Shown: positions 12,261 through 33,397, counted from the stretch's first letter. The stretch is 55,229 nucleotides of DNA from Burkholderiaceae bacterium (GCA_035524275.1 DATKPC010000103.1:1-55229); one strand, 5' to 3'. Made by a program: numbers and translations. The notes: generated by a model from the letters alone, not told the origin.

Positions 12261-13784
12261 ATGAGCCTTGAAGTCGAAGTCGACCGGATCCTCGACGCGG
12301 TCGGGGTCGATGCATCGCGCCGTCGCGGCGGGTCCCTCGCGGTGACCTCGCCGATCGACGGCAGCGCGATCGGCGCCGTGGCGCCGGCGACGCCCGCGGA
12401 TGTCGAGGCCGCGCTGCAGGCCGCGAGCGCGGCATTTCTCGACTGGCGGACGGTGCCGGCGCCGCGGCGCGGAGAACTGGTGCGCCGGTTCGGCGACGAA
12501 CTGCGCCGCGCGAAGCGCGATCTGGGCCTGCTGGTCACGCTCGAGACCGGAAAGATCGTCTCCGAGGGCCTCGGCGAGGTCCAGGAGATGATCGACATCT
12601 GCGATTTCGCGGTCGGCCTTTCGCGCCAGCTGCACGGGCTGACGATCGCCTCCGAGCGGCGCTCGCACCGGATGATGGAGACGTGGCACCCGCTCGGCGT
12701 CTGCGGCGTCGTCTCGGCATTCAATTTCCCGGTCGCCGTCTGGGCGTGGAACGCCGCGCTCGCGCTCGTCTGCGGCGATCCCGTCGTCTGGAAGCCGTCG
12801 GAGAAGACGCCGCTCACGGCGCTCGCCGTCGATGCGCTGCTGCGCCGCGCGATCGCGAGCTTCGCTGGCGACGCGGATGCGGTTCCGCCCGGCTTGGCGG
12901 CGCTGCTGGTCGGCGGCCGCGAGGTCGCCGCGCAACTCGTCGACGATCCGCGCGTCGCGCTCGTCTCGGCGACCGGCTCCACCGCGATGGGGCGTGCGGT
13001 CGGGCCGCGCGTCGCGGCGCGCTTCGGCCGGTCGCTGCTCGAACTGGGCGGCAACAACGCCGGCATCGTCCGCCCGTCGGCCGATCTCGACCTGGCGCTG
13101 CGGGCGATCGCCTTCGCCGCGATGGGAACGGCCGGGCAGCGCTGCACGACGCTGCGCCGGCTGTTCGTGGCCGGCGGCATCTACGACCAGTTCATGCCGC
13201 GACTGAAGCGCGCCTTCGCGACGGTCCGGGTCGGGGATCCGCGTGAGGCGGCGACGCTCGTCGGCCCGCTGATCGATCGCGCCGCCGGCGTCGCGATGCA
13301 GGCGGCGCTGGACGAGGCGCGCGCCCTCGGCGGTCAGGTGACCGGCGGCGAGCCGGTCGATCGGGGCGGGCGCGGAACGTACGCGCGGCCGGCGCTCGTG
13401 GAGCTGCCGGCGCAGTGCGGGCCGATGCTGCGCGAGACGTTCGCGCCGATCCTCTACGTCGTGCGCGAGGACGACCTCGAGCGGTCGATCGCGGCGCAGA
13501 ACGCCGTCGGCGCCGGGCTGTCGTCGTGCATCTTCACGCGCGACCTGCGCGAGGCGGAGCGTTTCCTGTCGGCGGCCGGGTCCGACTGCGGCATCGCGAA
13601 CGTCAATATCGGGCCTTCCGGCGCCGAGATCGGCGGCGCCTTCGGCGGCGAGAAGGAGACCGGTGGCGGCCGCGAGTCGGGTTCCGACGCCTGGAAGGCC
13701 TACATGCGGCGCGCGACGAATACGATCAACTACGGCGACGCGCTGCCGCTGGCGCAGGGCGTGCGGTTCGACGTCGAAGGCTGA
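12261..13784 (+). CDS. amaB: Aldehyde dehydrogenase, ALDH7 / piperideine-6-carboxylate (alpha-aminoadipic semialdehyde) dehydrogenase-like, 507 aa.
   Basis: ETWHPLGVCGVVSAFNFPVAVWAWNAALALVCGDPVVWKPSEKTPL closely resembles the antiquitin/AmaB signature. The catalytic ELGGNNAG and the …CTTLRRL Cys are present. Confidence 0.8.
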   Translation: MSLEVEVDRILDAVGVDASRRRGGSLAVTSPIDGSAIGAVAPATPADVEAALQAASAAFLDWRTVPAPRRGELVRRFGDELRRAKRDLGLLVTLETGKIVSEGLGEVQEMIDICDFAVGLSRQLHGLTIASERRSHRMMETWHPLGVCGVVSAFNFPVAVWAWNAALALVCGDPVVWKPSEKTPLTALAVDALLRRAIASFAGDADAVPPGLAALLVGGREVAAQLVDDPRVALVSATGSTAMGRAVGPRVAARFGRSLLELGGNNAGIVRPSADLDLALRAIAFAAMGTAGQRCTTLRRLFVAGGIYDQFMPRLKRAFATVRVGDPREAATLVGPLIDRAAGVAMQAALDEARALGGQVTGGEPVDRGGRGTYARPALVELPAQCGPMLRETFAPILYVVREDDLERSIAAQNAVGAGLSSCIFTRDLREAERFLSAAGSDCGIANVNIGPSGAEIGGAFGGEKETGGGRESGSDAWKAYMRRATNTINYGDALPLAQGVRFDVEG

Positions 13785-13848
13785 CGCGACGGCGGCGACG
13801 CCGTGGTCCGAGCCCAGGGAACGCAGCGCGAGGAGACCGGACGTGGAC

Positions 13849-14601
13849 ATGCGGACCGCAAGCGGTAGCCCGCTTTACCTGCTCGAGCGCAGCGACGTCG
13901 GCCTCGTGCAGCTCGATCGCGAACTGAAGGTCATCGCGATGAACAGCTTCGCGCGGCGCACGCTGCCGGTCGAGGACATGCAGCCGTTCGAGAAGATCGT
14001 GCTGTCGTTCCATCCGGAGCGTTCGCGCGCGAAGGTCCGGTTCCTGCTGGACCAGGCCGAATGCCCGGTCAGCAACCCGCCGCCGATGACGATGATCATC
14101 AACATCCCGGAACGGGTGCTGCTCGTCAAGGTGACGAAGCTCTCCGACCTGCGCGGCGACACGACCGGCTACGCGCTCGTGTTCTACGACATCACCGACG
14201 CGGTCCTGCGCGAGGCCGCGGGGGTCACGCGGGCCGAAGCGAAGCGCCAGCTGCTGAAGATCCCGACCGTCACGCAGAATCGCATCGTGCTCGTCGACGC
14301 GGCCAACGTGCGTTATGTCCGCGCCGAGGGCCACTACACGTGGGTCTACACCGCGCAGGGGGCGAGCTTCTGCAACCTCGCGATCAGCGACCTCGAGGGC
14401 CGCCTCGACAGCGGCTCTTTCCTGCGCATCCACCGCAGCTACGTCGCGAACCTCGACTACGCGGAACAGATAGTCCGCGATGACGGAAAGGTATTGCTGA
14501 AGCTTTCCGGCAGTGACGACCCGGCGCTGCCCGTCGCGCGGACCAGCGTCGCCCGCCTCCTGGCCCATCTCGGCATCGCCGAAACACCGCTCGAGCGCTG
14601 A
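13849..14601 (+). CDS. One-component transcriptional regulator: N-terminal PAS-like sensor domain plus C-terminal LytTR DNA-binding domain, 250 aa.
   Basis: The C-terminal half (IVLVDAANVRYVRAEGHYTWVYTAQGASF…FLRIHRSYVANLDY) is a canonical LytTR domain. The N-terminal ~120 aa has a PAS-like fold signature. An AGGAGA sits upstream. Confidence 0.72.
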   Translation: MRTASGSPLYLLERSDVGLVQLDRELKVIAMNSFARRTLPVEDMQPFEKIVLSFHPERSRAKVRFLLDQAECPVSNPPPMTMIINIPERVLLVKVTKLSDLRGDTTGYALVFYDITDAVLREAAGVTRAEAKRQLLKIPTVTQNRIVLVDAANVRYVRAEGHYTWVYTAQGASFCNLAISDLEGRLDSGSFLRIHRSYVANLDYAEQIVRDDGKVLLKLSGSDDPALPVARTSVARLLAHLGIAETPLER

Positions 14602-14786
14602 ACCCCCGGCTCGCGGGTACGGCCCGCGGCAGCGGGCTGCCGTTCGTGCGCAATGAGACGCGTTTCGTGCGGCCGGCCGCCTTGTTGCGGCGCACTCTCA
14701 CTAAGTTCGCCACGAACGACGCCGTCGCCGCGGCGCCGCGCGCGCGGCGTCGGGATCGACGCAAGAACACGGAGGAGGCAGTCGAG

Positions 14787-15653
14787 ATGATTCCCGCGGG
14801 GTTCGAGTACCACGCCCCGAGGTCGGTCGACGCGGCCCTGAAGCTGCTCGGCGACCTCGGGCCCGACGCGAAGCTGCTGGCGGGCGGCCACAGCCTGCTG
14901 CCGATGATGAAGCTGCGGTTCGCGCAGCCTTCGCACCTCGTCGATCTCGGCCGCATCGCGGAACTGCGCGGCATCGCGCACGTCGGCGACGAGATCCGGA
15001 TCGGTGCGATGACGACCGAGAACGACCTGCTGCGTTCCGCGCTGCTTGCCGAAAAGGTGCCGCTGCTCGTCGAGGGCGCCGGCTGGATCGCGGATCCGCA
15101 GGTCCGCTACAAGGGGACCATCGGCGGCGACATCTCGCACGGCGATCCGGGCAACGACCACCCGGCGCTGATGCTGGCGCTGGACGCGTCGTTCGTCCTG
15201 GCGGGCCCGTCGGGCGAGCGCGTCGTCAAGGCCGACGGCTATTTCCTCGGCCTCTACGCGACGCTGCTGGAGCCGGGCGAGATCCTGACGCAGGTGCGCG
15301 TGCCGATCCCGCCCGCCGGCAGCGGCTGGTCCTACCAGAAGCTCAAGCGCAAGACCGGCGACTTCGCGACCGCGGCGACCGCGGTGCAGCTGCAGCTGGC
15401 CGGCGGAAGGATCGCCAAGGTCGGCATCGGACTGACGAACGTCGGCGCGACCGCGCTGAAGGCGCGTGCGGCCGAAGACTTCCTGGCTGGCAGGGCCCTC
15501 GACGAAACGGCGCTGCGCGAGGCGGCCCGCCTCGCGATGTCGATCTGCGAGCCGATGGCCGACCTGCGCGGCGACGCCGAGTACAAGACCGCGATGTGCG
15601 GCGAGATGACGCGGCGGGCGCTGCAGGCCGCGCACCAGCGCGCCCGCGCGTAG
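14787..15653 (+). CDS. coxM: Molybdo-flavoprotein (CO dehydrogenase / xanthine dehydrogenase family) FAD-binding medium subunit, 288 aa.
   Basis: [21 protein letters not shown]… is the FAD-binding PCMH domain of CoxM/CutM. A GGAGGAGG RBS lies 8 nt upstream. Confidence 0.88.
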
Positions 15654-15670
15654 GAAGCGAGGAAACGACG

Positions 15671-16156
15671 ATGTCGACGACGCAGAAAGTCACGTTCACC
15701 CTCAACGGCAAGCCGGTGACGACGGACGTGGAGCCGCGCGAGCTGCTGATCCACACGTTGCGCGAGAAGCTGGCGCACACCGGGCCGCACATCGGCTGCG
15801 AGACCTCGCATTGCGGCGCCTGCACGGTCGACCTCGACGGCATGTCGGTGAAGGCCTGCACCGTGCTGACCGTCCAGTGCGACGGCGGCGCGATGCTGAC
15901 GGTCGAGGGGCTCGAGCAGGGCGGCGCGCTGCACGCGATCCAGCAGGCGTTCCACGAGGAGCACGGGTTGCAGTGCGGGTACTGCACGCCGGGGATGATC
16001 ACGCGCGCCTACCGCCTGCTGAAGGAGAACCCGGACCCGTCGGAGCAGGAGATCCGCTTCGGCCTGGCCGGCAACCTCTGCCGCTGCACCGGCTACCAGA
16101 ACATCGTGAAGGCGGTCCAGTCCGCCGCGCGCAGGCTCGCGGCGATGCCCGCGTAG
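15671..16156 (+). CDS. coxS: [2Fe-2S] iron-sulfur small subunit of the Mo-hydroxylase (CoxS/CutS), 161 aa.
   Basis: Two 2Fe-2S motifs ([11 protein letters not shown]… and CGYCTPGMI…CRCTGYQNI). Confidence 0.9.
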
Positions 16157-16208
16157 CGGCCCGTCGCCGCGGCGCTCGACCCCACCTTCCACGTATCGGA
16201 GAACCCCG

Positions 16209-18614
<2,406 letters not shown>

Positions 18615-18630
18615 GCGGCGGCGCGACGCG

Positions 18631-19290
18631 ATGAAAGTGGAACTCGAGCGCAGCTATCCGATGCCGGGGTCGGCCGACGCCGCCTGGACGCTGCTGCAGG
18701 ATATCGAAGGCGTGGCCGCCTGCATGCCCGGGGCGCGGATCACCGAGCGGATCGACGCGCAGCGCTACAAGGGCACGGTGTCGGTCCGGTTCGGCCCCGC
18801 CAGCATGTCGTTCCGCGGCGAGGTCGAGGTGAGCGGGATCGATCCGGCCGGCCGCGCGCTGCGCCTCGCGGGCAAGGGAACCGACACGACGGGCGGCTCG
18901 GCGGCATCGATGGAGCTGCAGGCCCGCGTCGTGCCGGTCGACGCGTCGAGCTGCACGCTGGTCGGCACGAGCGAGATGACGATGAGCGGCAAGGCCGCGA
19001 CGTTCGGCGGCCGCATGGCGGGCTCGGTCGCGGACCAGGTGCTGAAGCAGTTCGCCGCGAACTTCGCCGCGAAGCTGCAGGCGCTGCCGCCGGCGCCGCC
19101 GGCGGCCGTCGACACGACGCCCATCGCGTCGTCGCCCATCGCGACGTCGCCGAATGCGGCCGCGCCCGCGCCGGCGCCCGCCGTGGCGCCCTCGCAGGGG
19201 CCCGCGCCGGCGCCGATGAACGGCCTCGCGCTGGCCTGGGCGATCATCAGGGACTGGCTGCGCTCGCTCTTCGCATCGAAGCCGACATGA
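18631..19290 (+). CDS. coxG: CoxG-like SRPBCC-family accessory protein with a C-terminal Pro/Ala linker and a hydrophobic membrane anchor, 219 aa.
   Basis: MKVELERSYPMPGSADAAWTLLQDIEGVAACMPGA… is the typical CoxG N-terminus. Its start overlaps the coxL stop region, and its stop overlaps the coxD start (ATGA). Confidence 0.78.
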   Translation: MKVELERSYPMPGSADAAWTLLQDIEGVAACMPGARITERIDAQRYKGTVSVRFGPASMSFRGEVEVSGIDPAGRALRLAGKGTDTTGGSAASMELQARVVPVDASSCTLVGTSEMTMSGKAATFGGRMAGSVADQVLKQFAANFAAKLQALPPAPPAAVDTTPIASSPIATSPNAAAPAPAPAVAPSQGPAPAPMNGLALAWAIIRDWLRSLFASKPT

Positions 19291-20180
19291 GCGACGCCCG
19301 CGGCGACGAGATCGCCGCGTTCCGGCGCGATCTCGCGGTCGCCGGCTACATCGCGGAGCCGGCCCTCGTCGCGGCGCTGCTGCTGATGCAGGACCTCGGT
19401 CGACCGCTGCTGCTGGAGGGCGACGCCGGCGTCGGCAAGACCGAAGTCGCGAAGGTCCTGGCGGCGCGGCGCGACACGCGGCTGATCCGGCTCCAGTGCT
19501 ACGAAGGGCTCGACGCGCATTCGGCGATCTATGAATGGAACTACCAGCGGCAGCTGCTCGCGATCAAGCTGCTGGAGCACGACGACCGCGGCATGCCGCA
19601 GAAGGAGCAGGACATCTTCTCGGAGCGCTACCTGCTGGCGCGGCCGCTGCTGGAGGCGATACGCTGCGCGGTGCCCCCGGTCCTGCTGATCGACGAGGTC
19701 GACCGCGCCGACGAGGCGTTCGAGGCGTACCTGCTGGAGATCCTGTCGGACTTCCAGCTGTCGATCCCGGAACTCGGGACGGTCCGGGCGACGACGCGGC
19801 CGCTCGTCGTCATCACGTCCAACGGCACGCGCGAGCTTTCCGACGCGCTGCGGCGCCGCTGCCTGTACCAGTACATCGACTATCCGGACTACGAGAAGGA
19901 ACTCGCGATCGTCCGCGCCAAGGCGCCCGATGCCGGGCCGGACCTGGCGCGCCAGGTCGTCGCGTTCGTCCAGGGCGTGCGCCGGATGGAACTGCAGAAG
20001 CGCCCCGGCATCGCCGAGACGCTCGACTGGACCGCGGCGCTGCTGCGGCTCGGGGTCTCGACGATCGATGTCGACGGTGCCGAGCGCATCCTGCAGACGC
20101 TGGCTGCCCTCGTGAAGACGCGCGACGATCGCGCCGCGTTTCCGCGCGAGGTCGTCGCGCGCCTGGCGGCGGCATGCTGA
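19287..20180 (+). CDS. coxD: MoxR-type AAA+ ATPase CoxD, 297 aa.
   Basis: Walker A GDAGVGKT, Walker B LLIDEVDRA, MoxR-family architecture. Confidence 0.85.
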   Translation: MSDARGDEIAAFRRDLAVAGYIAEPALVAALLLMQDLGRPLLLEGDAGVGKTEVAKVLAARRDTRLIRLQCYEGLDAHSAIYEWNYQRQLLAIKLLEHDDRGMPQKEQDIFSERYLLARPLLEAIRCAVPPVLLIDEVDRADEAFEAYLLEILSDFQLSIPELGTVRATTRPLVVITSNGTRELSDALRRRCLYQYIDYPDYEKELAIVRAKAPDAGPDLARQVVAFVQGVRRMELQKRPGIAETLDWTAALLRLGVSTIDVDGAERILQTLAALVKTRDDRAAFPREVVARLAAAC

Positions 20181-21331
20181 AGCCGGGGCCTGCCGTGGCC
20201 CCGCTCGACGCGCGCCTTTCCGCCCGCCTCGCGGGATTCGCCGGTTTCCTGAGGGCGAACGGCTTCGCGATCGGCGGCGGCGACGCGACGGACGTCGTGC
20301 GGGCCGCGCGTGCCGCGGGCGTCCTCGATCGGGACGTGCTGCGCTGGAATCTCAAGGCGCTGCTGTGCGGCCGAAGCGAGGAGTGGCGCCGCTACGATGC
20401 GCTGTTCGATGCCTGGTTCCTGCCGCCGAACCGCTGGCAGGCGCCGCAGCGCCGCGCGGTCGACGACGTTCGCCGCGACGGGCTCGACGCGGATGCCGGC
20501 GTCGAGCCCGCCGGCGGCGACTCGCCGCCGCGCGACGACGACGCACGGCCGCGACGTGCCGCGAGCGCGCGCCATCGCGACGGGACCGCGGACTTCCGCG
20601 ACCTCGCGGCGCGCGAGCACGCGGTCGACGTCGAGATGCTGATGCGGCGCTTCGCGCGGCAGGTCAAGCGGATCCGCCTGCGCCGCGACTCGATGGCGCC
20701 GCGCGGACGGCGCCTCGCGCTGCCGACGACGATCCGCCGCAGCATCGCGAGCGGCGGGACGCCGCTGCGTCTCGCGTGGACCGACCGCCGGCGGGTGCAG
20801 CCGCGCCTCGTCTGGCTGATCGACGTCAGCCGCTCGATGGCGCCCTACAGCTTCTTCCACCTGCGCCTGGCACGCGCGCTGGCGGCCGAGCGCAGCGATG
20901 TCCACAGTTTCATCTTCCATACGCGGGTGACCGCGGTCTCGCAGGCGCTGCACGACCCGGACCCGTGGCGGGCCCAGGAGCGCCTGCACCTCGTCGCGCA
21001 GGGGTGGGCCGGCGGAACGCGAATCGGCGACAGCCTGGCGGAGTTCAACCGCGCGCACGCCCCGCGGCTCGTCCACCGGCGCACCGCGGTGATCATCGTC
21101 AGCGACGGCTACGACACCGGGGATCCGGCGCGGCTCGCGGCCGCGTTGCAGCAGCTGCGCCGCCGCGCCCGGCGGATCGCGTGGATCAATCCGCTCGCCG
21201 GGCGCCCCGGCTGGGAGCCGACCTGCCTGGGCATGCAGGCGGCGCTGCCGCACCTGGACGTGCTCGCCGCTGGCGCCGACCTGGCGTCGATCCGCGCGGC
21301 GCTGCCGCGGCTGATCGAGGGTTTGCGCTGA
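20174..21331 (+). CDS. coxE: VWA-domain protein CoxE, 385 aa.
   Basis: C-terminal VWA/MIDAS-like region (WLIDVSRSMAPYS…IVSDGYDTG) typical of CoxE/VWA partners of MoxR ATPases. The start overlaps the coxD stop. Confidence 0.78.
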   Translation: MLKPGPAVAPLDARLSARLAGFAGFLRANGFAIGGGDATDVVRAARAAGVLDRDVLRWNLKALLCGRSEEWRRYDALFDAWFLPPNRWQAPQRRAVDDVRRDGLDADAGVEPAGGDSPPRDDDARPRRAASARHRDGTADFRDLAAREHAVDVEMLMRRFARQVKRIRLRRDSMAPRGRRLALPTTIRRSIASGGTPLRLAWTDRRRVQPRLVWLIDVSRSMAPYSFFHLRLARALAAERSDVHSFIFHTRVTAVSQALHDPDPWRAQERLHLVAQGWAGGTRIGDSLAEFNRAHAPRLVHRRTAVIIVSDGYDTGDPARLAAALQQLRRRARRIAWINPLAGRPGWEPTCLGMQAALPHLDVLAAGADLASIRAALPRLIEGLR

Positions 21332-21393
21332 CATGTCGACGGACCGGCGCGGCGCAGCCGCGCGGACCCCGGACGGCGCGGAGGATTGACCGG

Positions 21394-22092
21394 ATGGGTT
21401 GCCTGCTGAAGGGGAATCGCGGCCTGTACAGCCGGATGACGATCGGCGCCGTCCTGCTTGCAGCCGGCGCGGGGTCGCGGCTGGGCGGCCGACCGAAGGC
21501 GCTGCTGGAGCTGGGCGGCGTGCCGCTGATCCTGCGGCAGCTGGTCGCGCTGTCCGGCGCCGGGGTCGACGAGGTCGCCGTCGTCCTCGGCCACCACGCC
21601 GACGCGATCGAAGCCGCGGTCCGCCCGTTTCCGATCACGCTGGCGCGCAATCCGGCGCCCGACGACGGACAGGCCGGGTCGGTCCGCGTCGGGCTGCAGG
21701 CGCTTTCGCCGGCGCTCGATGCGGTGATCGTCGCGCTCGCCGACCAGCCGCTGATCGACGCGCAAGACATCACGGCGCTCATCGGCGCCTTCAAGAAGCG
21801 CGGCGAGGCGGCCATGGTCGTGCCGAGCGTCCGCGATCCGGCCGGCGCGAACGTCCCCGGCAACCCGATCATCTTCGACGCGGCGTTGCGCGACGCCTGG
21901 CTCGGCGGTGCCGCGGACCTCGCGTGCCGCCGCTGGCGCGCCGCGAACCCGGACAAGGTCGGCTGGTTCGAGACGGACAACACGCGCTACCGGATCGACA
22001 TCGACGCGCCGCAGGACCTGGATCGCTTCGCGGAACTGACCGGACATCGCCTCGCCTGGCCGCCGGCATGGACGGCCGCGAAGAGCGGCTGA
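21394..22092 (+). CDS. MobA/MocA-like nucleotidyltransferase (molybdenum cofactor cytidylyl/guanylyltransferase), ~232 aa.
   Basis: AVLLAAGAGSRLGGRPKALLELGG…ADQPLI is the typical MobA-like NTP-transferase signature. GGAGG sits 10 nt upstream of the chosen ATG. It follows the cox genes, as is common. Confidence 0.72.
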   Translation: MGCLLKGNRGLYSRMTIGAVLLAAGAGSRLGGRPKALLELGGVPLILRQLVALSGAGVDEVAVVLGHHADAIEAAVRPFPITLARNPAPDDGQAGSVRVGLQALSPALDAVIVALADQPLIDAQDITALIGAFKKRGEAAMVVPSVRDPAGANVPGNPIIFDAALRDAWLGGAADLACRRWRAANPDKVGWFETDNTRYRIDIDAPQDLDRFAELTGHRLAWPPAWTAAKSG

Positions 22093-22099
22093 CGACGAC

Positions 22100-23287
22100 G
22101 TGGCGGCGCTGCCGGCATCGACCCTCCCGCTGTCGCGCGCCTGCGCCTGGGCGCTGCTCGTCGGTGGCTGGATCGGGATCGGCAGCCTCGCGCTTCAACT
22201 CGCGCCGAGTGCCTGGCTCGCCTTCGGGCTGGTCGCCGCGTGGCTCGTCGGTCTCGGCGCGGCGGCGCGGCTCGGGACGCGCCGCGGCATGCCATCGTCG
22301 GTCCGCGCGGTGGCGCTGGTCGCCGCGACGGGCGCCACCGCCGCGTCGCTCCTTGCCGCGGTCGAGGGCGGCGGCGTCGTGGCGCTGCTGGTGGCGATCG
22401 TCGGCTGGGCGGCGATGACCGCACTGGCATCCGGTGTCGTGCGCGGCCTGCGGCTGGCACGGTCGACCGCCCCGGCACCGCCGGTGGCCGCGGCGACCGT
22501 GGGAGCGCTTGCGGCGGCTGCCGCGATCGGCGATCCGGGACAGTTCGCGGCGCTCGGCGAACGCCTCGCGCTGTTCGTCGGAGCCGGCGGCCTGCTTCTC
22601 CTGGTCCTGCAGCGCGGGATCGTCGACAGTCCGCGAGGCGCGGGCTGCCGTGCCGGACTGTTCGACTGCTCGCTGCCGGCGTGGCCACCGGGTGCCTGGG
22701 GCGAACCGCAGCAGTGGCCGGCGCTGTTCGCCGGCCTCGGGATGCTGCCGATGATGGCCGCGTTGCCGCTGATGGCCGAATGGTGCCGCGCGCGTTCCGT
22801 GCCGCCCCAGGCGCTCGTCGTGCTGCACGTCGCCTCGATGTTCGTTCCGGCCCTGCTGGCGCGGCGCGCGATCGCCGTGGCGACGCCGCGCGCGCTGGCG
22901 GTCGCGTGCACCGTGCTGCTGGTGGCCGGTGCCGCGTGCGCCGTGCGATGGGCGGCACCGTTCGACCTGCTGGCGCCCGCCGCGCTGCAGGGCGCCGCCT
23001 GGGGAATGGCGTGGAGCGGCCAGCTCTGGTCGCCGACGCGGCGCGCGCGCCAGGGGGCTTCGCCGCTGCGCGCCGCGATCGGCTACGCGGCCTGCACGCT
23101 GGCCTACGGCGCGATCGTCGACCGCTTCGGGCCCGCGGGCATCGTCGGCGTCCACGTCGCGCTCGCCGTGGCCGCGTCCTGCGCCTGGGTGCTGGTCGCG
23201 ATCGCGGTCGCCGCGCGGCGCGGCGCGCGGGCCGGCGACCGGCCGACGGCGCCGGATGCGCCGATCATGCCGCCGCCGGGCGCGTAG
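22100..23287 (+). CDS. Hypothetical polytopic inner-membrane protein (~12 TM, possibly MFS-like), 395 aa, with a GTG start per the ORF track.
   Basis: Long ORF with a regular succession of hydrophobic helices. No recognisable MFS signature motifs were identified. It lies directly downstream of the mocA-like gene. Confidence 0.45.
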   Translation: MAALPASTLPLSRACAWALLVGGWIGIGSLALQLAPSAWLAFGLVAAWLVGLGAAARLGTRRGMPSSVRAVALVAATGATAASLLAAVEGGGVVALLVAIVGWAAMTALASGVVRGLRLARSTAPAPPVAAATVGALAAAAAIGDPGQFAALGERLALFVGAGGLLLLVLQRGIVDSPRGAGCRAGLFDCSLPAWPPGAWGEPQQWPALFAGLGMLPMMAALPLMAEWCRARSVPPQALVVLHVASMFVPALLARRAIAVATPRALAVACTVLLVAGAACAVRWAAPFDLLAPAALQGAAWGMAWSGQLWSPTRRARQGASPLRAAIGYAACTLAYGAIVDRFGPAGIVGVHVALAVAASCAWVLVAIAVAARRGARAGDRPTAPDAPIMPPPGA

Positions 23288-23325
23288 TATCCGAAGCGGC
23301 TGCGTTTCCGCGGCGCGCCCACGGC

Positions 23326-24150
23326 ATGAAGATCCTCCTGCTGTCCGATCTGCACCTGGAGTTCGCGGGCAACCGCGACTTCGTTCCCGCGCCCGCGGCG
23401 GTCGACGCCTGCGACGTCATCGTGCTGGCCGGCGACATCCACAACGGGCCCCTCGGCATCGAATGGGCGGCGCGCGCCTTCCCGCGGCGCCCGGTCGTCT
23501 ACGTCGCCGGCAACCACGAGTACTACGAATCGGACTGGGCGTCGACACGCGCGGCGTTGCGGACGGCCGCCGCCGCCAGCGCCAACGTGCGGCTGCTGGA
23601 CGACGGCGTCACGCTCGTGGGCGGCGTCCGCTTCCTCGGCGCGACGCTGTGGACGGACTTCGCGCTTTTCGGTGCCGCCGAGCGCGCCCGCTGCGAGGCG
23701 GCGGCGACGGAGTTCATCGCCGACTTTCGCCTGATCCGTCGCGCGCCCGAGGCCGCCGCTTCGGATGCGGCCGCCGCCGCTCCGGTCAGCCTGCCGCTGT
23801 TCACGACCGGCGATTCGATCCGGCTCCACGAGGCCTCGCGGGCGTTCCTGGAGGCGGAACTCGCGCGGCCGTTCGCCGGACCGACCGTCGTCGTGACGCA
23901 TCACCTGCCGTCGGCGCGCTCGAATGCGGAGCGGTTCCGCACGCTGGCGACCTCGGCCGCGTTCGCGAGCGTCCTCGACGACCTCGTCGTGCGCGGCCGC
24001 GCGGCCGCGTGGCTGCATGGCCATACGCACGACAGCTTCGACTACCGGCTCGGTGCCACGCGGATCGTCTGCAACCCGATGGGCTATCCGCGCCGCAGCG
24101 GTGGCAAGGAGAACGCGAACTTCGATCCGGGGCTGATCGTCGAGGTGTAG
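23326..24150 (+). CDS. Calcineurin-like metallophosphoesterase, 274 aa.
   Basis: MKILLLSDLHLEF…GDIHNGP…GNHEYY…GHTHDSFD are the diagnostic metallophosphoesterase motifs (D-X-H, GD, GNHE, GHxH). Confidence 0.78.
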   Translation: MKILLLSDLHLEFAGNRDFVPAPAAVDACDVIVLAGDIHNGPLGIEWAARAFPRRPVVYVAGNHEYYESDWASTRAALRTAAAASANVRLLDDGVTLVGGVRFLGATLWTDFALFGAAERARCEAAATEFIADFRLIRRAPEAAASDAAAAAPVSLPLFTTGDSIRLHEASRAFLEAELARPFAGPTVVVTHHLPSARSNAERFRTLATSAAFASVLDDLVVRGRAAAWLHGHTHDSFDYRLGATRIVCNPMGYPRRSGGKENANFDPGLIVEV

Positions 24151-24172
24151 CGGCCCGCGCCGCCGGACGACA

Positions 24173-24790
24173 TCAGTCCGGCGACGACGTGTCGCCACCT
24201 TCCCACGGCGGCGCGACCTCGCCGGCACCGGCGTCGCCGGCCGTGCGCGGCCACGGGTCGTGGTCATCGAGGCCGAGGATGTAGTCCGCCTCCAGGTCGC
24301 CGACGTAGTACTGGTCGTTGATGAACGGCGATGCGCCCCACTGCGGCGGCCACATCCGCCAGACGCGCCTCGGCATCCGCGCGAAGAGCATCGCCGCCGT
24401 CACGGTCGCCTCGCGATAGCCGAGCGTCGGCGTCGGGCGGCGCGGGCGCGTCCGCAGCCAGTCGTAGGCGAGCACCGCCCGGCGGCAGTACTGGTACCCC
24501 GCGAGGACGAGGCCGAGGCGCGTGACGCGGCTGCCGCCATCCTCGTCGCCGAGCGTGGCGCGGCGCTCGACCGGACCGAGGCAGACCAGGCGCGCGACGG
24601 CCATCTCCTGCGCGCGGGCCCAGTCCAGGAAATTGACGCAGCGCTCGCGCGTTCGAAGCATGTCGTTCAGCTGCGCGATGCGGCTGCGCGAGAGGCCGAG
24701 GTCGATGAATTCGCGCGCGTGCCCGATCGCCTCGTGGCGATAGACCTCGAGGCGCGCATCGGCACCGTCGTCCACGCTGGAAGGAAGCAT
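24173..24790 (-). CDS. Hypothetical protein, 205 aa, no recognised domain.
   Basis: ORF co-directional with, and 87 nt downstream of, the sensor kinase gene. Composition is plausible but not distinguishable from background in this GC-rich DNA. Confidence 0.35.
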   Translation of the reverse strand: MLPSSVDDGADARLEVYRHEAIGHAREFIDLGLSRSRIAQLNDMLRTRERCVNFLDWARAQEMAVARLVCLGPVERRATLGDEDGGSRVTRLGLVLAGYQYCRRAVLAYDWLRTRPRRPTPTLGYREATVTAAMLFARMPRRVWRMWPPQWGASPFINDQYYVGDLEADYILGLDDHDPWPRTAGDAGAGEVAPPWEGGDTSSPD

Positions 24791-24876: not shown

Positions 24877-28050
<3,174 letters not shown>

Positions 28051-28210: not shown

Positions 28211-28762
28211 TTACCCGCCGCCGCGCGCCGCCTCGGCGTCGGCACGTCCGGTGTGGCGGGTTGATACCGCCGCCAGGATGCCGCGCAGCAGGTCGCGCGG
28301 CGGCGGCGGGCAGCCGGGAATCGCGACGTCGACCGGGATCACGTGGGCGATCCGCCCGCGGCAGGCGTAGCTCTCGCCGAACACGCCGCCATCGCAGCCG
28401 CAGTCGCCGACGGCGACCACCAGCACGGGCTGCGGCGCCGCATCGTAGGTCCGGCGCAGCGCGGCCTCCATGTGGCGCGAGACCGGCCCGGTCACCAGGA
28501 GCATGTCGGCGTGCCGCGGGCTCGCGACGAAGCGGATCCCGAGGCCTTCGAGGTTGTAGTACGGATTGTTCAGCGCGTGGATCTCGAGCTCGCAGCCGTT
28601 GCACGAGCCGGCGTCGACCTGCCGGATCGAGAGCGCGCGGCCGACGATGGCGAGCAGCTCGCCGCGGATCCGCGCCTCGTCGCGCCGCCAGGCCTCGTTC
28701 GCCTCCGGCGCGGGCTCGGTCACCAGCCCGACGCGGGCCACCTGTCGCAACAGCTGCCACAT
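28211..28762 (-). CDS. NuoB / HycG-like small subunit of a group-4 [NiFe]-hydrogenase-related complex, 183 aa, retaining [4Fe-4S] ligands.
   Basis: SCNGCE…GDCGCDGG…PGCPP motifs are the NuoB-family proximal-cluster ligands. The start ATG overlaps the stop of the large-subunit gene (TGATG). Confidence 0.8.
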   Translation of the reverse strand: MWQLLRQVARVGLVTEPAPEANEAWRRDEARIRGELLAIVGRALSIRQVDAGSCNGCELEIHALNNPYYNLEGLGIRFVASPRHADMLLVTGPVSRHMEAALRRTYDAAPQPVLVVAVGDCGCDGGVFGESYACRGRIAHVIPVDVAIPGCPPPPRDLLRGILAAVSTRHTGRADAEAARGGG

Positions 28763-30324
28763 CAGAGATCGTGTCCGGAATAGCTGAGGTTGAAGGATTT
28801 GTTGATCAGCGGGAAGTCGGGGACGATGTTGTCGATCACCGCATGCTCCAGCACCGGCCAGTTGCGCCACGACGGATCGCTGAGGTGGCAGCGCCGGATC
28901 GCTCCCGACGGCGCGAGTTGAAGCGCGACGAGGATCTCGCCGCGCCAGCCCTCGACCCATCCGGCGCCGGCGCCGGCGCGCCCGATGTCGCCGACCGTCG
29001 CGAGCCGCGCGCCCTGCGGCAGCCCGCGCGCGATGTCGCGAATCAGCTGCAGCGACGATCGCAGCTCCGCGAACCGGACTTCGGCGCGGGCCGCGACGTC
29101 GCCGGCCGCGGCACTCGCGGCGCGCACCGCGAGCCGGTCGTAGGGCGGATGCGGATGGTCCGCGCGCAGGTCGCGCGCGATGCCGCTCGCGCGCCCCGCC
29201 AGCCCACAGAGGCCCAGCCGGGTCGCCAGCGGCGTCGCGACGCGACCGGTGCCGATGAACCGGTCCTGCAGCCCCGGATGCTCCTCGAAGATCGCATGCA
29301 GCCGCTCGACCTGCGGCTCCAGCGCATCGCATTGGGCGGCGAGGCGAGCGGCGGCGGCGGCGTCGAGGTCGACGCAGGTGCCGCCCGGCACGATGCGGTC
29401 CATCAGCAGCCGATGCCCGAACAGTTCGCCGTTGAGGCGCAGCCAGTCCTCCCTGAGCCGCGAGAATTGGGCCAGGCCGAACGCCAGCGCGACGTCGTTG
29501 GCCAGCGCGCCGAGGTCGCCGAGGTGGTTGGCAACCCGCTCGCGCTCCAGCAGCAGGCCGCGCAGCCAGGCGGCGCGATCCGGGACGGCGACGCCGGTCG
29601 CCGCCTCCAGCGCCATGCAGGTGGCCCACGCGTAGGCCACCGTCGAGTCGCCGCAGGCGCGCCCCGCGATGCGGTGCGCATCGAGCGGCGCGGTGCGTTC
29701 CATCAGCTGCTCGATTCCCTTGTGCACGTAGCCGAGGCGTTCTTCGAGCCGCAGGACCTTTTCGCCGACGACCGAGAACCGGAAATGACCCGGCTCGATG
29801 ATGCCGGCATGCACCGGCCCGACCGCGATCTCGTGGACGCCGTCGCCTTCGACGGTGACGAAGCGGTAGGGCTCCGGCTTCGCCGCCGGGACCGGCGCTG
29901 ATGACTCGCCTTCGCCGCGGCGCAGCGGGAAATAGCCGGCGGGCCACGCGTCATGCCGCAGCCAGGGCCGCTGGTCGGCGCTGCCGGCGGCGACGACGCC
30001 GGCCAGGTCGCGCGCCGCGCGCTGCATCCGGAGCGCCGCTGGGAAAAGCCGTGACACGTCCGGGTAGTCCGGATGCGAGGGCGCGAGCGCGAGCGTGATC
30101 CACGCGAGGCCGCCGGCGAACGCATAGGCCGCATGGACCGCCGGATCGCCTCCTTCCGTCGTTCCGCCCCACAGCGCGACGAGGCGTCCGCTGGCGCGGG
30201 CCGCTTCGGCCGCCGCCGTCCACTCCGCGGCGTCGACCGTGGCGCGCCCGATCGGCAGCGGCGCGTCCGTCGCCTCGAGCGCGATCGCGAGGCCGTCGAT
30301 GCGGTCGAAGCGGGGCGCCGGCAT
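28762..30324 (-). CDS. Fused NuoC-NuoD-like large subunit (HycE/HyfG-like) lacking the NiFe-binding cysteines, 520 aa.
   Basis: N-terminal NuoC-like domain, then a NuoD/hydrogenase large-subunit domain (GPVHAGIIEPGHFRF…LEERLGYVHKGIE). The L1 motif is RACGDS (hydrogenases RxCGxC). The C-terminal L2 is DPSWRNW (hydrogenases DPCxxC). Only 1 of 4 Ni-Fe Cys ligands remains. GGAGG lies 8 nt upstream. The start overlaps the hyfF-like stop. Confidence 0.85.
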   Translation of the reverse strand: MPAPRFDRIDGLAIALEATDAPLPIGRATVDAAEWTAAAEAARASGRLVALWGGTTEGGDPAVHAAYAFAGGLAWITLALAPSHPDYPDVSRLFPAALRMQRAARDLAGVVAAGSADQRPWLRHDAWPAGYFPLRRGEGESSAPVPAAKPEPYRFVTVEGDGVHEIAVGPVHAGIIEPGHFRFSVVGEKVLRLEERLGYVHKGIEQLMERTAPLDAHRIAGRACGDSTVAYAWATCMALEAATGVAVPDRAAWLRGLLLERERVANHLGDLGALANDVALAFGLAQFSRLREDWLRLNGELFGHRLLMDRIVPGGTCVDLDAAAAARLAAQCDALEPQVERLHAIFEEHPGLQDRFIGTGRVATPLATRLGLCGLAGRASGIARDLRADHPHPPYDRLAVRAASAAAGDVAARAEVRFAELRSSLQLIRDIARGLPQGARLATVGDIGRAGAGAGWVEGWRGEILVALQLAPSGAIRRCHLSDPSWRNWPVLEHAVIDNIVPDFPLINKSFNLSYSGHDL

Positions 30325-31790
30325 CAGGAACCTCCGATCAGCTGCGCGGCGCTGCGCCACCATGCGCCGAGGTACGGCGGGACGTAGAGTCCCAGCATCA
30401 GCGCGAGGCCGAGGTGGACGAAGATCGGCAGCAGCGCCGGCGCGTGCGGCAACGCGCGAACGCTGGGCTCGCCGAAGGCCATTTCCTGCACCTTCGAGAA
30501 CACCGCCGCGAACGCGACCGCGAGCGCGAGCAGCAGCAGCGGCGCCGCCCACGGCAGCTCGCGCATCGTGGTCGTCAGGATCAGGAACTCGCTCGCGAAG
30601 ACGCCGAAGGGCGGCATGCCGAGGATCGCGACGGTGCCGACGACGAGCCCCCAGCCGACGGTCGGGTTCGACTTCACGAGGCCGCGGATGGACTCCATCA
30701 GCTGCGTTCCGGCCTTCTGCGCCGCATGTCCGGCCGCGAAGAAGATCGACGACTTGACCAGCGAATGCACGGTCATGTGCAGCAGGCCGGCGAACGTCGC
30801 GACCGGGCCGCCGATCCCGAAGGCGAACGTCATCAGGCCCATGTGCTCGATCGACGAGTACGCGAAGAGCCGCTTGATGTCGCGCTGTCGCATCAGGAAG
30901 AACGACGCGCTGACGACCGACAGCAGTCCGAAGCCGACCATCAGGCTGCCGGCGAGGTGGTTGTGCAGCGCGCCGTCGGCAAGGACCTTGCTGCGCAGCA
31001 CCGCATAGAGCGCGACGTTCAGCAGGAGCCCGGAGAGGACCGCGGAGATCGGCGTCGGGCCTTCGGCGTGGGCATCCGGCAGCCAGTTGTGCACCGGGAC
31101 GAGGCCGACCTTCGTGCCGTAGCCGAGCATCAGGAAGACGAACGCGAGCGAAAGGATGTTCGGTTCCAGGCGGTCCTTGACGGCCTCCAGGTTGCTCCAC
31201 AGCAGCGCGCCGCCGCCGGGCCCGATGACCCGCTCGGCGGCGAGGAACAGCAGGATCGTCCCGAACAGCGCCTGCGCGATGCCGACCCCGCAGAGGATGA
31301 AGTATTTCCACGCGGCTTCGAGGCTGGCGGCGGTCCGGTAGACGCTCACCAGCAGCACGGTCGCCAGCGTCGCGGCCTCCATGGCGACCCACAGGATGCC
31401 GACGTTGTTCGTCGTCAGCGCCAGCAGCATCGTGAACGTGAAGAGCTGGTACATGCTGTGGTAGAGGCGCATCCGCGGCGGCGTCATGCGCCCGTGGTCC
31501 TGCTCGATGCGCATGTAGGGGATCGAGAACAGCGCCGTCGTCAGGCCGACGAAGGCGGTCAGCGCGACCAGGAAGACGTTGAGCGGGTCGATCAGGAAGG
31601 CCTGCCCGAAATGGAAGCCCGGGCCGTCGGCGACGACGCGCGCGACGAGCGCCGCGGCGGCCGCCAGCGTCGCGGCGCTGAAGCCGGCGTTGACGGCCGC
31701 AGCGGCGCGGCGCGCGCCGATCACGCCGAGCGTCGCGGCGCCGGCGAGCGGGATGGCGAGGAGGACGGCGAGGCCGTCGATCTCATTCAT
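30324..31790 (-). CDS. NuoN/NuoM-like antiporter-type membrane subunit (HyfF-like), 488 aa.
   Basis: About 14 TM helices with conserved complex-I antiporter-like core motifs (…WLPDAHAEGPTPISA…). Confidence 0.82.
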   Translation of the reverse strand: MNEIDGLAVLLAIPLAGAATLGVIGARRAAAAVNAGFSAATLAAAAALVARVVADGPGFHFGQAFLIDPLNVFLVALTAFVGLTTALFSIPYMRIEQDHGRMTPPRMRLYHSMYQLFTFTMLLALTTNNVGILWVAMEAATLATVLLVSVYRTAASLEAAWKYFILCGVGIAQALFGTILLFLAAERVIGPGGGALLWSNLEAVKDRLEPNILSLAFVFLMLGYGTKVGLVPVHNWLPDAHAEGPTPISAVLSGLLLNVALYAVLRSKVLADGALHNHLAGSLMVGFGLLSVVSASFFLMRQRDIKRLFAYSSIEHMGLMTFAFGIGGPVATFAGLLHMTVHSLVKSSIFFAAGHAAQKAGTQLMESIRGLVKSNPTVGWGLVVGTVAILGMPPFGVFASEFLILTTTMRELPWAAPLLLLALAVAFAAVFSKVQEMAFGEPSVRALPHAPALLPIFVHLGLALMLGLYVPPYLGAWWRSAAQLIGGS

Positions 31791-32400
31791 CCTTCAGCCT
31801 CTCGAGGTGCTGGATGTCGAGGCTGTCGAACTGTTCGCGGATCTGGAACATGAAGACGCCGAGGATCAGCAGCCCGACGAGGACGTCGAGCGCGATGCCG
31901 AGCTCGACGACCATCGGCATGCCGTAGGTCGCCGCGGTGGCGGCGAAGAACAGCGCGTTTTCCATCGACAGGAAGCCGATCACCTGCGGCACCGCCTTCG
32001 CCCGCGTGATCATCATCATGAACGACAGCAGCACGCACGCCAGCGCGATGCCGAGCGAGCCGCCGGCCACCGACGAGGTCAGGCGGGCGATCGGCGCCGC
32101 GAGGTTGAAGGAGAAGACGACGAGCACGATCCCGATCAGCATCGTCGTCGGGATGTTGATGAGGGTCTCGACGTCCCACTTGACGTCGAGGCGGTCGATC
32201 AGCCGGTGCAGCGCCACCGGCAGCGCGACGACCTTCAGCAGCAGCGTGACGAGCGCCGAGAAGAACAGGTGCGGCTGTCCGGTCGCGCGCGCGACGAGCG
32301 CGGTGGCCAGCGCCAGCGCCAGGCCCTGCAGCGTGAAGAGCCGGATCAGCAGCAGCACGCGGCGCTGCGACAGCATCGCGAAGGCGAGCAGCAGCAGCAC
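31783..32400 (-). CDS. HyfE-like small membrane subunit of hydrogenase-4-type complexes, 205 aa.
   Basis: Six predicted TM helices. Size and position (between the NuoH-like and NuoN-like genes) match hyfE in hyf operons. Confidence 0.65.
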   Translation of the reverse strand: MLLLLAFAMLSQRRVLLLIRLFTLQGLALALATALVARATGQPHLFFSALVTLLLKVVALPVALHRLIDRLDVKWDVETLINIPTTMLIGIVLVVFSFNLAAPIARLTSSVAGGSLGIALACVLLSFMMMITRAKAVPQVIGFLSMENALFFAATAATYGMPMVVELGIALDVLVGLLILGVFMFQIREQFDSLDIQHLERLKDE

Positions 32401-32443
32401 CGCGGCGAGCAGGTTGATCAGCTGGGGCAGCAGCGCGTCGATC

Positions 32444-33397
32444 TCAGGCTCCCAGCAGCAGGTGGACCAGCATCCCGAGCACCGCGAGCAGGAACGCGGT
32501 GGCGAGGAACTCCGGGACGCGGAAGACGCGCATCTTGGCGCTCGTCGCCTCGACCAGCGCGAGCGCGGCGCCGCCGATCGCGAGCTTCAGCAGCAGCACC
32601 GGGATCGCGAGCACGAGGGCCAGCGGCTCGCCGGCCTCGGCGACGCCCCACGGGAAGAACAGCGCCAGCCCGATGCACGAGTACGCGAAGAGCTTGAGGC
32701 TCGCGGCCCACTCCAGCAGCGCCAGGTGGCGCCCCGAGTACTCCAGGACCAGCGCCTCGTGGATCATCGTGAGCTCGAGGTGCGTCGACGGATTGTCGAC
32801 CGGGACCCGGGCGTTTTCCGCCAGCGACACCATCGTGAAGGCGACGCCGGCGAACGCCAGGCTGGGATAGATCGCGAACTCGCGGTGCGCGAGCGACCCG
32901 ACGATCTGGGTCAGCGACGTCGATTGCGTGATCAGCGACGCGGAGAACAGCACCGTGAGCAGCGCCGGTTCGGCCAGGAAGCCGACCAGCATCTCGCGCC
33001 GCGCGCCGAGCGTGCCGAACGCCGTGCCGATGTCCATCGCGGCGAGCGATATGCACATGCGCGCGACGCTGAAGAGCCCGACGAGCGCGATGGCGTCGGC
33101 CGCCGGCGCCAGCGGCAGATCGGTCGACAGCGTCGGCACGATCCCGCAGGACAGCGCCATGCAGCCGAAGACGACGTACGGCGCGCCGCGGAACAGCGGC
33201 GAGGCGTTGTCGGCGACGACCGCCTCGCGCGCGAACAGCTTGCGCAGCGTCCGGTACGGCTGCAGCAGGCTCGGCGCCGAGCGGTTCAGCAGCCACGCGC
33301 GGCACTGGTTGACCCACCCGCTGAGCAGCGGCGCGAGCAGCAGCGCGAGCGACAGCTCGAGCAGCTGCGCCGCGGCGCCGGTCCAGCTCAGTCCCAT
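32444..33397 (-). CDS. NuoH-like membrane subunit (HycD/HyfC-like), 317 aa.
   Basis: Starts MGLSWTGAAAQLLELSLALLLAPLLSGWVNQ…, typical of the HycD/NuoH family. Its start overlaps the stop of the preceding NuoL-like gene by 8 nt. The track ORF (1088 aa) has a long Arg-rich spurious N-terminal extension. Confidence 0.85.
   Translation of the reverse strand: MGLSWTGAAAQLLELSLALLLAPLLSGWVNQCRAWLLNRSAPSLLQPYRTLRKLFAREAVVADNASPLFRGAPYVVFGCMALSCGIVPTLSTDLPLAPAADAIALVGLFSVARMCISLAAMDIGTAFGTLGARREMLVGFLAEPALLTVLFSASLITQSTSLTQIVGSLAHREFAIYPSLAFAGVAFTMVSLAENARVPVDNPSTHLELTMIHEALVLEYSGRHLALLEWAASLKLFAYSCIGLALFFPWGVAEAGEPLALVLAIPVLLLKLAIGGAALALVEATSAKMRVFRVPEFLATAFLLAVLGMLVHLLLGA

Follow-up and report, generated by a model that had tools for sequence, protein, structure and literature searches.

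A large part of the carbon monoxide (CO) in the atmosphere is consumed by aerobic CO dehydrogenases, and CO oxidisers are tallied in surveys through the motif AYXCSFR. In published models the phenylalanine of this active-site loop (Phe390 in Oligotropha carboxidovorans) directs its ring at the copper, and a role in placing the substrate and shaping a water site is ascribed to it (PMC6334162, PMC9310835). Among the accessory proteins, CoxD is a sulfuration chaperone for the molybdenum site, and CoxF has been proposed as the copper supplier in O. carboxidovorans (PMC4240915). A 2026 survey lists AYRCSLR, with leucine in the sixth position, among six motifs in 707 form I large subunits (CoxL), and dropping this motif removed only 3 of 235 genomes from the survey's set (PMC13203968); a second survey from the same year defines form I by (A/S)YRCS(F/L)R (PMC13240472). 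Here we describe an AYRCSLR locus in a 55,229-nt stretch of DNA with approximately 70% G+C (the window) from a Burkholderiaceae metagenome-assembled genome (GCA_035524275.1 DATKPC010000103.1:1-55229). A single co-directional gene string on the + strand, coxM-S-L-G-D-E-mocA, spans positions 14787-22092, and all reading frames of the cox cluster are intact. Judging by its sequence, the region most probably encodes, as one operon, a working Mo-Cu CO dehydrogenase of the aerobic form I type.

Assignment of the large subunit

Genes were called from codon usage, and the translated open reading frames (ORFs) were scanned against Pfam and NCBIfam. The window CoxL scores 1368.6 bits against TIGR02416, the equivalog model for the large subunit of aerobic CO dehydrogenase, far above the cutoff of 991.15, whereas none of the models for glyceraldehyde, xanthine, 4-hydroxybenzoyl-CoA and aldehyde oxidoreductases reaches its own cutoff. 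A sequence search of solved structures returns Hydrogenophaga pseudoflava CutL (1FFV, 1297 bits), O. carboxidovorans CoxL (1N5W, 1186 bits) and Mycobacterium smegmatis CoxL (8UEM, 1016 bits) as the best matches, with quinoline oxidoreductase at only 462 bits.

CoxL residues 380-393 read VAYRCSLRVTEAVY; the codon is TGC for Cys384 and CTG for Leu386. Three catalytic positions align with those of O. carboxidovorans: Cys384 in AYRCSLR with the copper-ligating Cys388, Gln236 in TTQAPH with Gln240, which contacts the Mo-oxo group, and Glu754 in GAKGVAE with the catalytic Glu763. The classical AYXCSFR signature does not fit CoxL, where Leu386 occupies position 6, equivalent to Phe390 of O. carboxidovorans. 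A preliminary description of this DNA, made from the sequence alone, had reported the loop with its copper-ligating cysteine and the Phe-to-Leu change, and had proposed looking for the ligand cysteine and the conserved glutamate of the CuSMoO2 site. Both residues are present in the alignments, and the loop reads AYRCSLR rather than anything resembling AYRGAGR. These results support the assignment of CoxL to the form I Mo-Cu CO dehydrogenases.

In a protein library clustered at 50% identity, form I comprises one full-length AYRCSFR representative, 75% identical to CoxL, and fragments. Because the whole form collapses to this one representative, the search is uninformative on the boundary between leucine and phenylalanine types. 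The next families in the library are 42-46% identical to CoxL, and those with a recognisable loop carry the AYRGAGR type. An exact-sequence look-up finds CoxL to be identical to NCBI HUN93481.1, annotated as 'aerobic carbon-monoxide dehydrogenase large subunit [Burkholderiaceae bacterium]'. As the exact protein is already in NCBI and AYRCSLR is listed in both 2026 surveys, the novelty of the sequence is low.

Phylogenetic position

Trees were built by neighbour-joining (NJ), a distance method; one tree of 39 taxa, with M. smegmatis as its root, was given 200 bootstraps. The 121 sequences with leucine in the loop (L type) form one clade that contains no sequence with phenylalanine (F type). This L clade is monophyletic in 200 of 200 bootstraps of the 39-taxon tree, the H. 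pseudoflava-type clade receives 100% support, and the two group with the form I representative P0121 with 80% support; O. carboxidovorans and then M. smegmatis fall outside this group. The stem branch of the L clade is long. Over gap-free columns, the window CoxL is 71% identical to its H. pseudoflava counterpart and 66% identical to that of O. carboxidovorans, while the latter two are 69% identical to each other; identity is at least 80% within the L clade and at most 77% between L and F types. Because of this placement and these identity values, we regard the L clade as an old but ordinary branch of proteobacterial form I, bracketed by known CO oxidisers.

A phylogeny of the large subunit had been suggested together with the outcome that would speak against a CO dehydrogenase, namely a position among xanthine, nicotinate or 4-hydroxybenzoyl-CoA-type enzymes. 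CoxL takes no such position: the L clade, at 100% support, is nested inside proteobacterial form I. The earlier proposal of a bona fide form I enzyme from an unusual subclade therefore agrees with the gene content, the TIGR02416 match and the tree alike, and CO oxidation would be the activity predicted from them.

The leucine variant in related loci

Relatives of the locus were collected in a scan of one genome per species, which yielded 456 species-level matches across several families; locus counts given here refer to the best 80 of these 456, and codon counts to the same 80 loci plus the window (n = 81). All 80 loci carry AYRCSLR. Their sources include Ramlibacter, Caenimonas, Variovorax, Rivibacter, Hylemonella, Curvibacter, Polaromonas, Rubrivivax, Methylibium, Steroidobacteraceae, Usitatibacter and Casimicrobiaceae. 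Leucine is likewise found in every one of the 120 closest protein clusters (85-92% identity), as AYRCSLR in 119 and AYRCSLL in one. The codons equivalent to that of Leu386 are CTG (68), TTG (8), CTA (2), CTC (2) and CTT (1); three of these five are one step from a phenylalanine codon, and phenylalanine is absent from the position in all 81. Comparison with three relatives gives a ratio of non-synonymous to synonymous substitution rates (dN/dS) of 0.08-0.09 for coxL and of 0.09-0.39 for the accessory cox genes. Leucine is a fixed and selected state of the whole clade—Comamonadaceae, other Burkholderiales and Steroidobacteraceae—and not a private mutation. The AYRCSLR group is a large, already catalogued clade of Burkholderiales from soil and freshwater.

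Among the 120 sequences closest to H. pseudoflava CutL the picture is complementary: 113 have AYRCSFR, five SYRCSFR, one no recognisable loop and one AYRCSLR. This single leucine sequence (P0374) is encoded on two soil metagenome contigs (L081 10001-12400 and L082 8042-10441) and is 85% identical to CutL. It lies inside the F-type clade and has none of the other L-clade substitutions, so its loop is an independent Phe-to-Leu change.

Co-fixed substitutions around the active site

We defined clade-defining positions as those where one residue has a frequency of at least 97% among L-clade sequences and of no more than 3% among 122 F-type sequences (O. carboxidovorans numbering), and found 30 of them. 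Phe390Leu is accompanied by Tyr568Trp, Leu565Ala and Pro265Gly. Tyr568Trp and Leu565Ala together turn PYGLGTYGSRST into PYGAGTWGSRST, with position 568 being tryptophan in 100% of the L clade and tyrosine in 122 of the 122 F-type sequences; Pro265Gly directly precedes the GGGFG motif. Further clade-defining changes are Tyr209Asn, Asp343Asn, Ala346Val, Asp347Ser, Pro348Ala, His357Ser, Gly374Ala and Tyr633His. Several of the 30 are located in or beside cofactor-contact motifs: the cysteine loop, GGGFG and GTYGSRST. The active M. smegmatis enzyme has Asn343, Ala374 and His633 in common with the L clade, and keeps Phe390, Tyr568, Leu565 and Pro265. Trp568 is absent from all three CO dehydrogenases that have been characterised, and quinoline oxidoreductase also has tyrosine at this position. 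A literature search on Tyr568 returned nothing decisive. Residue 568 presumably corresponds to the pocket-wall residue Ala1078 in xanthine oxidase from cattle, a correspondence that we take as a lead only.

The substitutions suggest that the pocket was remodelled in a coordinated way, smaller at position 390 and larger at 568. Since the leucine is fixed and selected throughout the clade together with Tyr568Trp, Leu565Ala and Pro265Gly, its presence in front of the copper would reflect a remodelled but working gas pocket and not a defect. Arg387Ala, which is universal in the actinobacterial clade including the active M. smegmatis enzyme (PMC12202499), is a precedent: there, too, a whole clade has changed a loop residue, and activity is retained.

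Accessory genes and loss of the in-cluster coxF

All 80 loci share the gene order coxM-S-L-G-D-E. M-S-L had been pointed out as the form I arrangement, with S-L-M prevailing elsewhere, and some relatives contain both. A second, divergently oriented Mo-hydroxylase cluster lies a few kilobases upstream of the AYRCSLR cluster in L024 (1-2458), L055 (1830-4597) and L070 (11-3718); its CoxL-like proteins are 39-43% identical and have an AYRGAGR loop, and the gene order is S-L-M in L024 and L070.

The coxG gene, initially described as encoding a membrane anchor, is present, but the role of its product is now seen as more than anchoring: CoxG is a quinone-extracting carrier in M. smegmatis (PMC12202499). 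The window protein consists of an SRPBCC domain, a Pro/Ala-rich linker and an amphipathic or hydrophobic C-terminal tail, an architecture in agreement with that of the M. smegmatis carrier. The mocA gene lies within the cox cluster in every sufficiently long related locus, after coxE in the Comamonadaceae-like branch that includes the window and before coxM in the Steroidobacteraceae/Usitatibacter branch. The MocA-like protein reaches 101 bits against TIGR03310, under the 186-bit cutoff.

The position after coxE varies among relatives. It is taken directly by an XdhC gene in 25 of 65 assessable loci and by mocA in the other 40. The 25 comprise 24 loci of the AYRCSLR clade, mostly basal branches with a few crown lineages, and the F-type locus of Aquabacterium. 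With 35-39% identity, the in-cluster XdhC proteins are orthologous to CoxF and not to CoxI. The crown group to which the window belongs has lost the in-cluster coxF that its basal relatives keep. Many of the CoxF orthologues (XdhC_CoxI and XdhC_C) end in a YHS domain, a putative copper-binding module, which fits the proposal of CoxF as a copper supplier (PMC4240915).

XdhC-YHS fusions were observed in L001 (15056-15985), L002, L003, L073 and L078, and tblastn reached the YHS region in about 15 further loci, for example L038, L045 and L068. A second XdhC type (L052, L069, L077) terminates in a Cys-rich tail, CCGH or CCSD.

A membrane protein gene at the end of the operon

The cluster had been described as ending with mocA at 22092. 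The gene limits hold, but the operon runs on into a further gene that starts 7 nt later and encodes a protein of 395 aa, annotated as hypothetical only. Scanning 40 members of its family at E up to 1 produced no Pfam or NCBIfam match, and only 479 related proteins are present in a large protein collection. An AlphaFold2 model based on 40 homologues (predicted local distance difference test, pLDDT, 84; predicted template modelling score, pTM, 0.84) has a 12-helix major facilitator superfamily (MFS) fold, and its top Foldseek matches are MdfA, NorA and VMAT (template modelling score ~0.6, probability 1.0).

Met215, Met218, Cys229, His243 and Met247 are invariant in the family and Met219 nearly so; the loop GCRAGLFDC, which lies between the two halves of the protein, is also invariant. 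The pattern M215xxxM219-x9-C229-x13-H243xxxM247 occurs in 119 of 120 family members, with M215xxxM219 in model helix 203-231 (helix 7) and H243xxxM247 in helix 236-260 (helix 8). In the copper importer CcoA, Met233xxxMet237 is part of helix 7 and His261xxxMet265 of helix 8, and Cys247 belongs to the loop after helix 7, so that each of the five motif positions in the window protein lies 18 residues before its CcoA counterpart (PMC8406296); the 28-residue spacing between M215 and H243 is the same as that between M233 and H261 of CcoA. The pair of MxxxM and HxxxM motifs has been described as a reliable predictor of copper import (PMC6362234).

In every context inspected, a gene of this family closes a cox cluster at its 3' end. 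In the L clade the gene is present in none of the 24 loci with an in-cluster XdhC and in 22 of the 40 without one, a distribution confounded by phylogeny; the Aquabacterium cluster has both genes. By analogy with CcoA, we hypothesise that the product is a CalT-like copper importer which serves the CuSMoO2 site of CO dehydrogenase. As a candidate counterpart of O. carboxidovorans CoxB or CoxK, the gene was rejected: blastp detects nothing similar, and CoxK belongs to the DMT family. A wider proposal, in which the AYRCSLR clade is a distinct functional type of Mo-Cu CO dehydrogenase with a rebuilt pocket and with crown-group copper delivered by a CcoA-like MFS importer in place of a cluster CoxF, is tentative and rather unlikely. 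If true, it would provide the first CalT-type importer tied to a cuproenzyme other than the cbb3 oxidase.

Regulator and upstream spacer

The preliminary description saw no coxB, coxC, coxH, coxI or coxK. CoxB, CoxI and CoxK are indeed absent, but a gene for a LytTR regulator related to CoxC and CoxH adjoins the cluster upstream. The LytTR domain of this PAS-LytTR protein is 28-29% identical to those of CoxC (E 5e-12) and CoxH (E 4e-9) from O. carboxidovorans, and its gene is the immediate upstream neighbour of coxM in at least 30 related loci as well as in the F-type cluster of Aquabacterium. It is the probable cox regulator and counterpart of the MHYT-LytTR proteins CoxC and CoxH. The spacer between the regulator gene and coxM holds TTCGTGC repeats, of which two clear boxes with a 21-bp period are seen in the window and three with a period of ~21 bp in relatives. 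When the spacers of 11 loci are aligned (the window with L007, L008, L010, L024, L029, L031, L035, L040, L063 and L070), these boxes are the strongest conserved blocks besides the ribosome-binding site, along with a downstream TTGCTGCA-like stretch. The repeats are a candidate LytTR operator. A scan of 13600-24400 for sigma-70 promoters and terminators detected nothing above the shuffled background.

Features of the locus and its neighbourhood

ORF translations and Pfam/NCBIfam scans recover every element of the coxM-S-L-G-D-E and mocA-like cluster where the preliminary description had placed it; the features are collected in Table 1.

Table 1. Positions of the cox operon features in the window
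Feature	Position	Strand	Product or evidence
PAS-LytTR transcription regulator	13843-14601	+	Pfam PAS_4 and LytTR
TTCGTGC direct repeats x2, candidate LytTR operator	14643-14649 and 14664-14670	+	
coxM	14787-15653	+	FAD-binding (flavin adenine dinucleotide) medium subunit, 288 aa; Pfam FAD_binding_5 and CO_deh_flav_C
coxS	15671-16156	+	Small subunit with two [2Fe-2S] clusters, 161 aa; Pfam Fer2 and Fer2_2
coxL	16209-18614	+	Form I Mo-Cu CO dehydrogenase large subunit, 801 aa; Pfam hammerhead and MoCoBD_1/2
AYRCSLR active-site loop, CoxL residues 381-387	17349-17369	+	
AGTW segment (Ala555...Trp558) within the GTYGSRST cofactor-contact loop of CoxL	17871-17882	+	
coxG	18631-19290	+	SRPBCC-fold quinone carrier; Pfam PF06240 COXG
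coxD	19287-20180	+	MoxR-type AAA+ ATPase; Pfam AAA_5
coxE	20174-21331	+	von Willebrand A-domain maturation protein; Pfam VWA_CoxE, E 6e-56
MocA-like molybdenum cofactor cytidylyltransferase	21436-22092	+	Pfam NTP_transf_3
MFS-fold membrane protein, last operon gene	22100-23287	+	AlphaFold2 and Foldseek

A metallophosphoesterase gene downstream (23326-24150) was left out of the cluster because it is conserved in no related locus. Beyond it, on the opposite strand, a 1057-aa multi-domain sensor histidine kinase (24877-28050), with C-terminal kinase motifs seen by eye, separates the cox operon from the six genes of a Hyf/Hyc-like membrane complex (28211-35394, - strand) that is related to the group 4 [NiFe] hydrogenases. 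The large subunit of this complex (28762-30363) has CGDS in place of the N-terminal CxxC nickel-iron ligand motif, and its C-terminus reads ...NLSYSGHDL in place of DPCxxC. With both ligand motifs replaced, the complex is probably of the Ehr type, without a NiFe site.

Proposed function and alternative readings

The gene content suggests how the operon would work. CoxL would bind the cytosine dinucleotide (MCD) form of the molybdenum cofactor, made by MocA, and carry copper on Cys384, with the CuSMoO2 centre matured by the AAA+ protein CoxD and the von Willebrand A (VWA) protein CoxE. CO would be oxidised to carbon dioxide, and the electrons would reach the FAD of CoxM by way of both [2Fe-2S] clusters in CoxS; from there CoxG would transfer them to the respiratory quinone. 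Transcription is probably controlled by the upstream PAS-LytTR protein through the TTCGTGC repeats.

Several points weigh against a functional CO dehydrogenase. The first of the two surveys remarks that AYRCSLR 'may be less functional' (PMC13203968), and our literature search turned up no study in which an AYRCSLR enzyme had been examined biochemically or physiologically; on CO oxidation by Ramlibacter or Variovorax with such an enzyme, nothing decisive came to light. Replacement of Phe390 together with Tyr568Trp could alter specificity or kinetics. The 55-kb window has no XdhC/CoxF gene, as had been noticed at the outset: tblastn with two CoxF orthologues from related loci gives a best E of 0.5. 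The same genomes may also hold a canonical AYRCSFR enzyme.

One alternative is a functional shift, with the AYRCSLR clade being a Mo-Cu enzyme of another preferred substrate or a markedly different kinetic regime, for which CO would be a side substrate at best. Thirty substitutions fixed in the clade and absent from F types, several of them at cofactor-contact motifs, would agree with such a shift, as would the long stem branch and a tryptophan at 568 that neither the characterised CO dehydrogenases nor quinoline oxidoreductase possess. We nevertheless consider it improbable: the copper-ligating cysteine, the catalytic glutamate and glutamine and the full CuSMoO2 maturation set are retained, and Asp343Asn, Gly374Ala and Tyr633His are common to the active M. 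smegmatis enzyme. Nor is there a sign of special acceleration, because the clade is about as distant from CutL (71% identity) as O. carboxidovorans is (69%). A much smaller chance attaches to a decaying or poorly functional CO dehydrogenase, where the leucine is damaging and the loss of coxF leaves the enzyme free of copper. The survey remark quoted above speaks for decay, and so does the lack of an XdhC/CoxF gene in the window and within 10 kb in 40 related loci; it is opposed by the strong purifying selection on coxL and on all accessory genes, by the retention of leucine through synonymous turnover among codons of which three in five are one step from phenylalanine, and by intact reading frames and hundreds of species-level matches across several families. 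Slightly less probable still is a different molybdenum hydroxylase, acting for instance on N-heterocycles or aldehydes and merely retaining the cysteine loop, an alternative that the preliminary description had raised. The subunits do match glyceraldehyde dehydrogenase and xanthine dehydrogenase models, but below threshold, with TIGR02416 far over its own; the phylogeny contradicts this alternative by nesting the clade inside form I, quinoline oxidoreductase scores far behind CutL, and CoxD, CoxE and CoxG are conserved, the first two being needed only for a CuSMoO2 site.

Reading the region as a form I CO dehydrogenase operon, we consider the finding sound and largely ordinary: the operon is recognisable and already annotated. 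What is new concerns the co-fixed Tyr568Trp, Leu565Ala and Pro265Gly, the PAS-LytTR regulator upstream, the loss of the in-cluster coxF in the crown group and the MFS gene with CcoA motifs; the pocket substitutions and the copper-supply genes are of specialist interest. A populous clade has AYRCSLR as its fixed and selected state, so that the motif is not noise, which supports keeping such sequences in counts of CO oxidisers—a choice that the two recent surveys made in favour of inclusion without evidence. If affinity or specificity is adjusted by the pocket substitutions, the clade would offer a natural experiment on what Phe390 does. The MFS protein linked to the cox genes and the XdhC-YHS fusions are candidates for the poorly understood step of copper delivery.

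Comparison with known systems

The last operon gene resembles CcoA of Rhodobacter capsulatus, from the CalT family, in its 12-helix MFS fold and in its MxxxM, Cys and HxxxM elements, as set against the published CcoA positions. Unlike CcoA, its product has no Pfam or NCBIfam MFS match, contains the GCRAGLFDC loop, and is linked to cox genes and not to the cbb3 oxidase.

Among the CO dehydrogenases, the M. smegmatis enzyme (8UEM, AYACSFR) is likewise of form I and likewise has a clade-wide loop substitution, and it shares Asn343, Ala374 and His633 with the window CoxL. It differs in being only ~60% identical and in keeping Phe390, Tyr568, Leu565 and Pro265.

The proteins of O. carboxidovorans OM5 (plasmid pHCG3; PDB 1N5W) are 53% (CoxM), 63% (CoxS), 65% (CoxL), 59% (CoxD), 38% (CoxE) and 29% (CoxG) identical to those of the window. 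The cluster of this organism (Oligotropha/Afipia), CoxBCMSLDEFGHIK, has the order L-D-E-F-G where the window has L-G-D-E. Its sensors are of the MHYT type, whereas the window regulator has a PAS domain instead; its CoxF, CoxI, CoxB and DMT-type CoxK are absent from the window cluster, and the window operon includes mocA and the MFS-fold gene, unlike that of O. carboxidovorans.

A closer layout is that of the F-type Aquabacterium sp. OR-4, with a LytTR regulator, M-S-L-G-D-E, XdhC, mocA and an MFS-like membrane protein gene. It differs from the window in having the XdhC/CoxF gene between coxE and mocA. Because this F-type cluster shares the layout, we regard the arrangement as betaproteobacterial and not as specific to the leucine clade. 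CutMSL of H. pseudoflava (PDB 1FFU/1FFV) and its relatives agree with the window in family, subunit set and betaproteobacterial layout; the large subunits are 71% identical and have the same catalytic Cys, Gln and Glu residues. The window enzyme departs from this AYRCSFR type by its AYRCSLR loop and by 29 further clade-specific substitutions, including Tyr568Trp.

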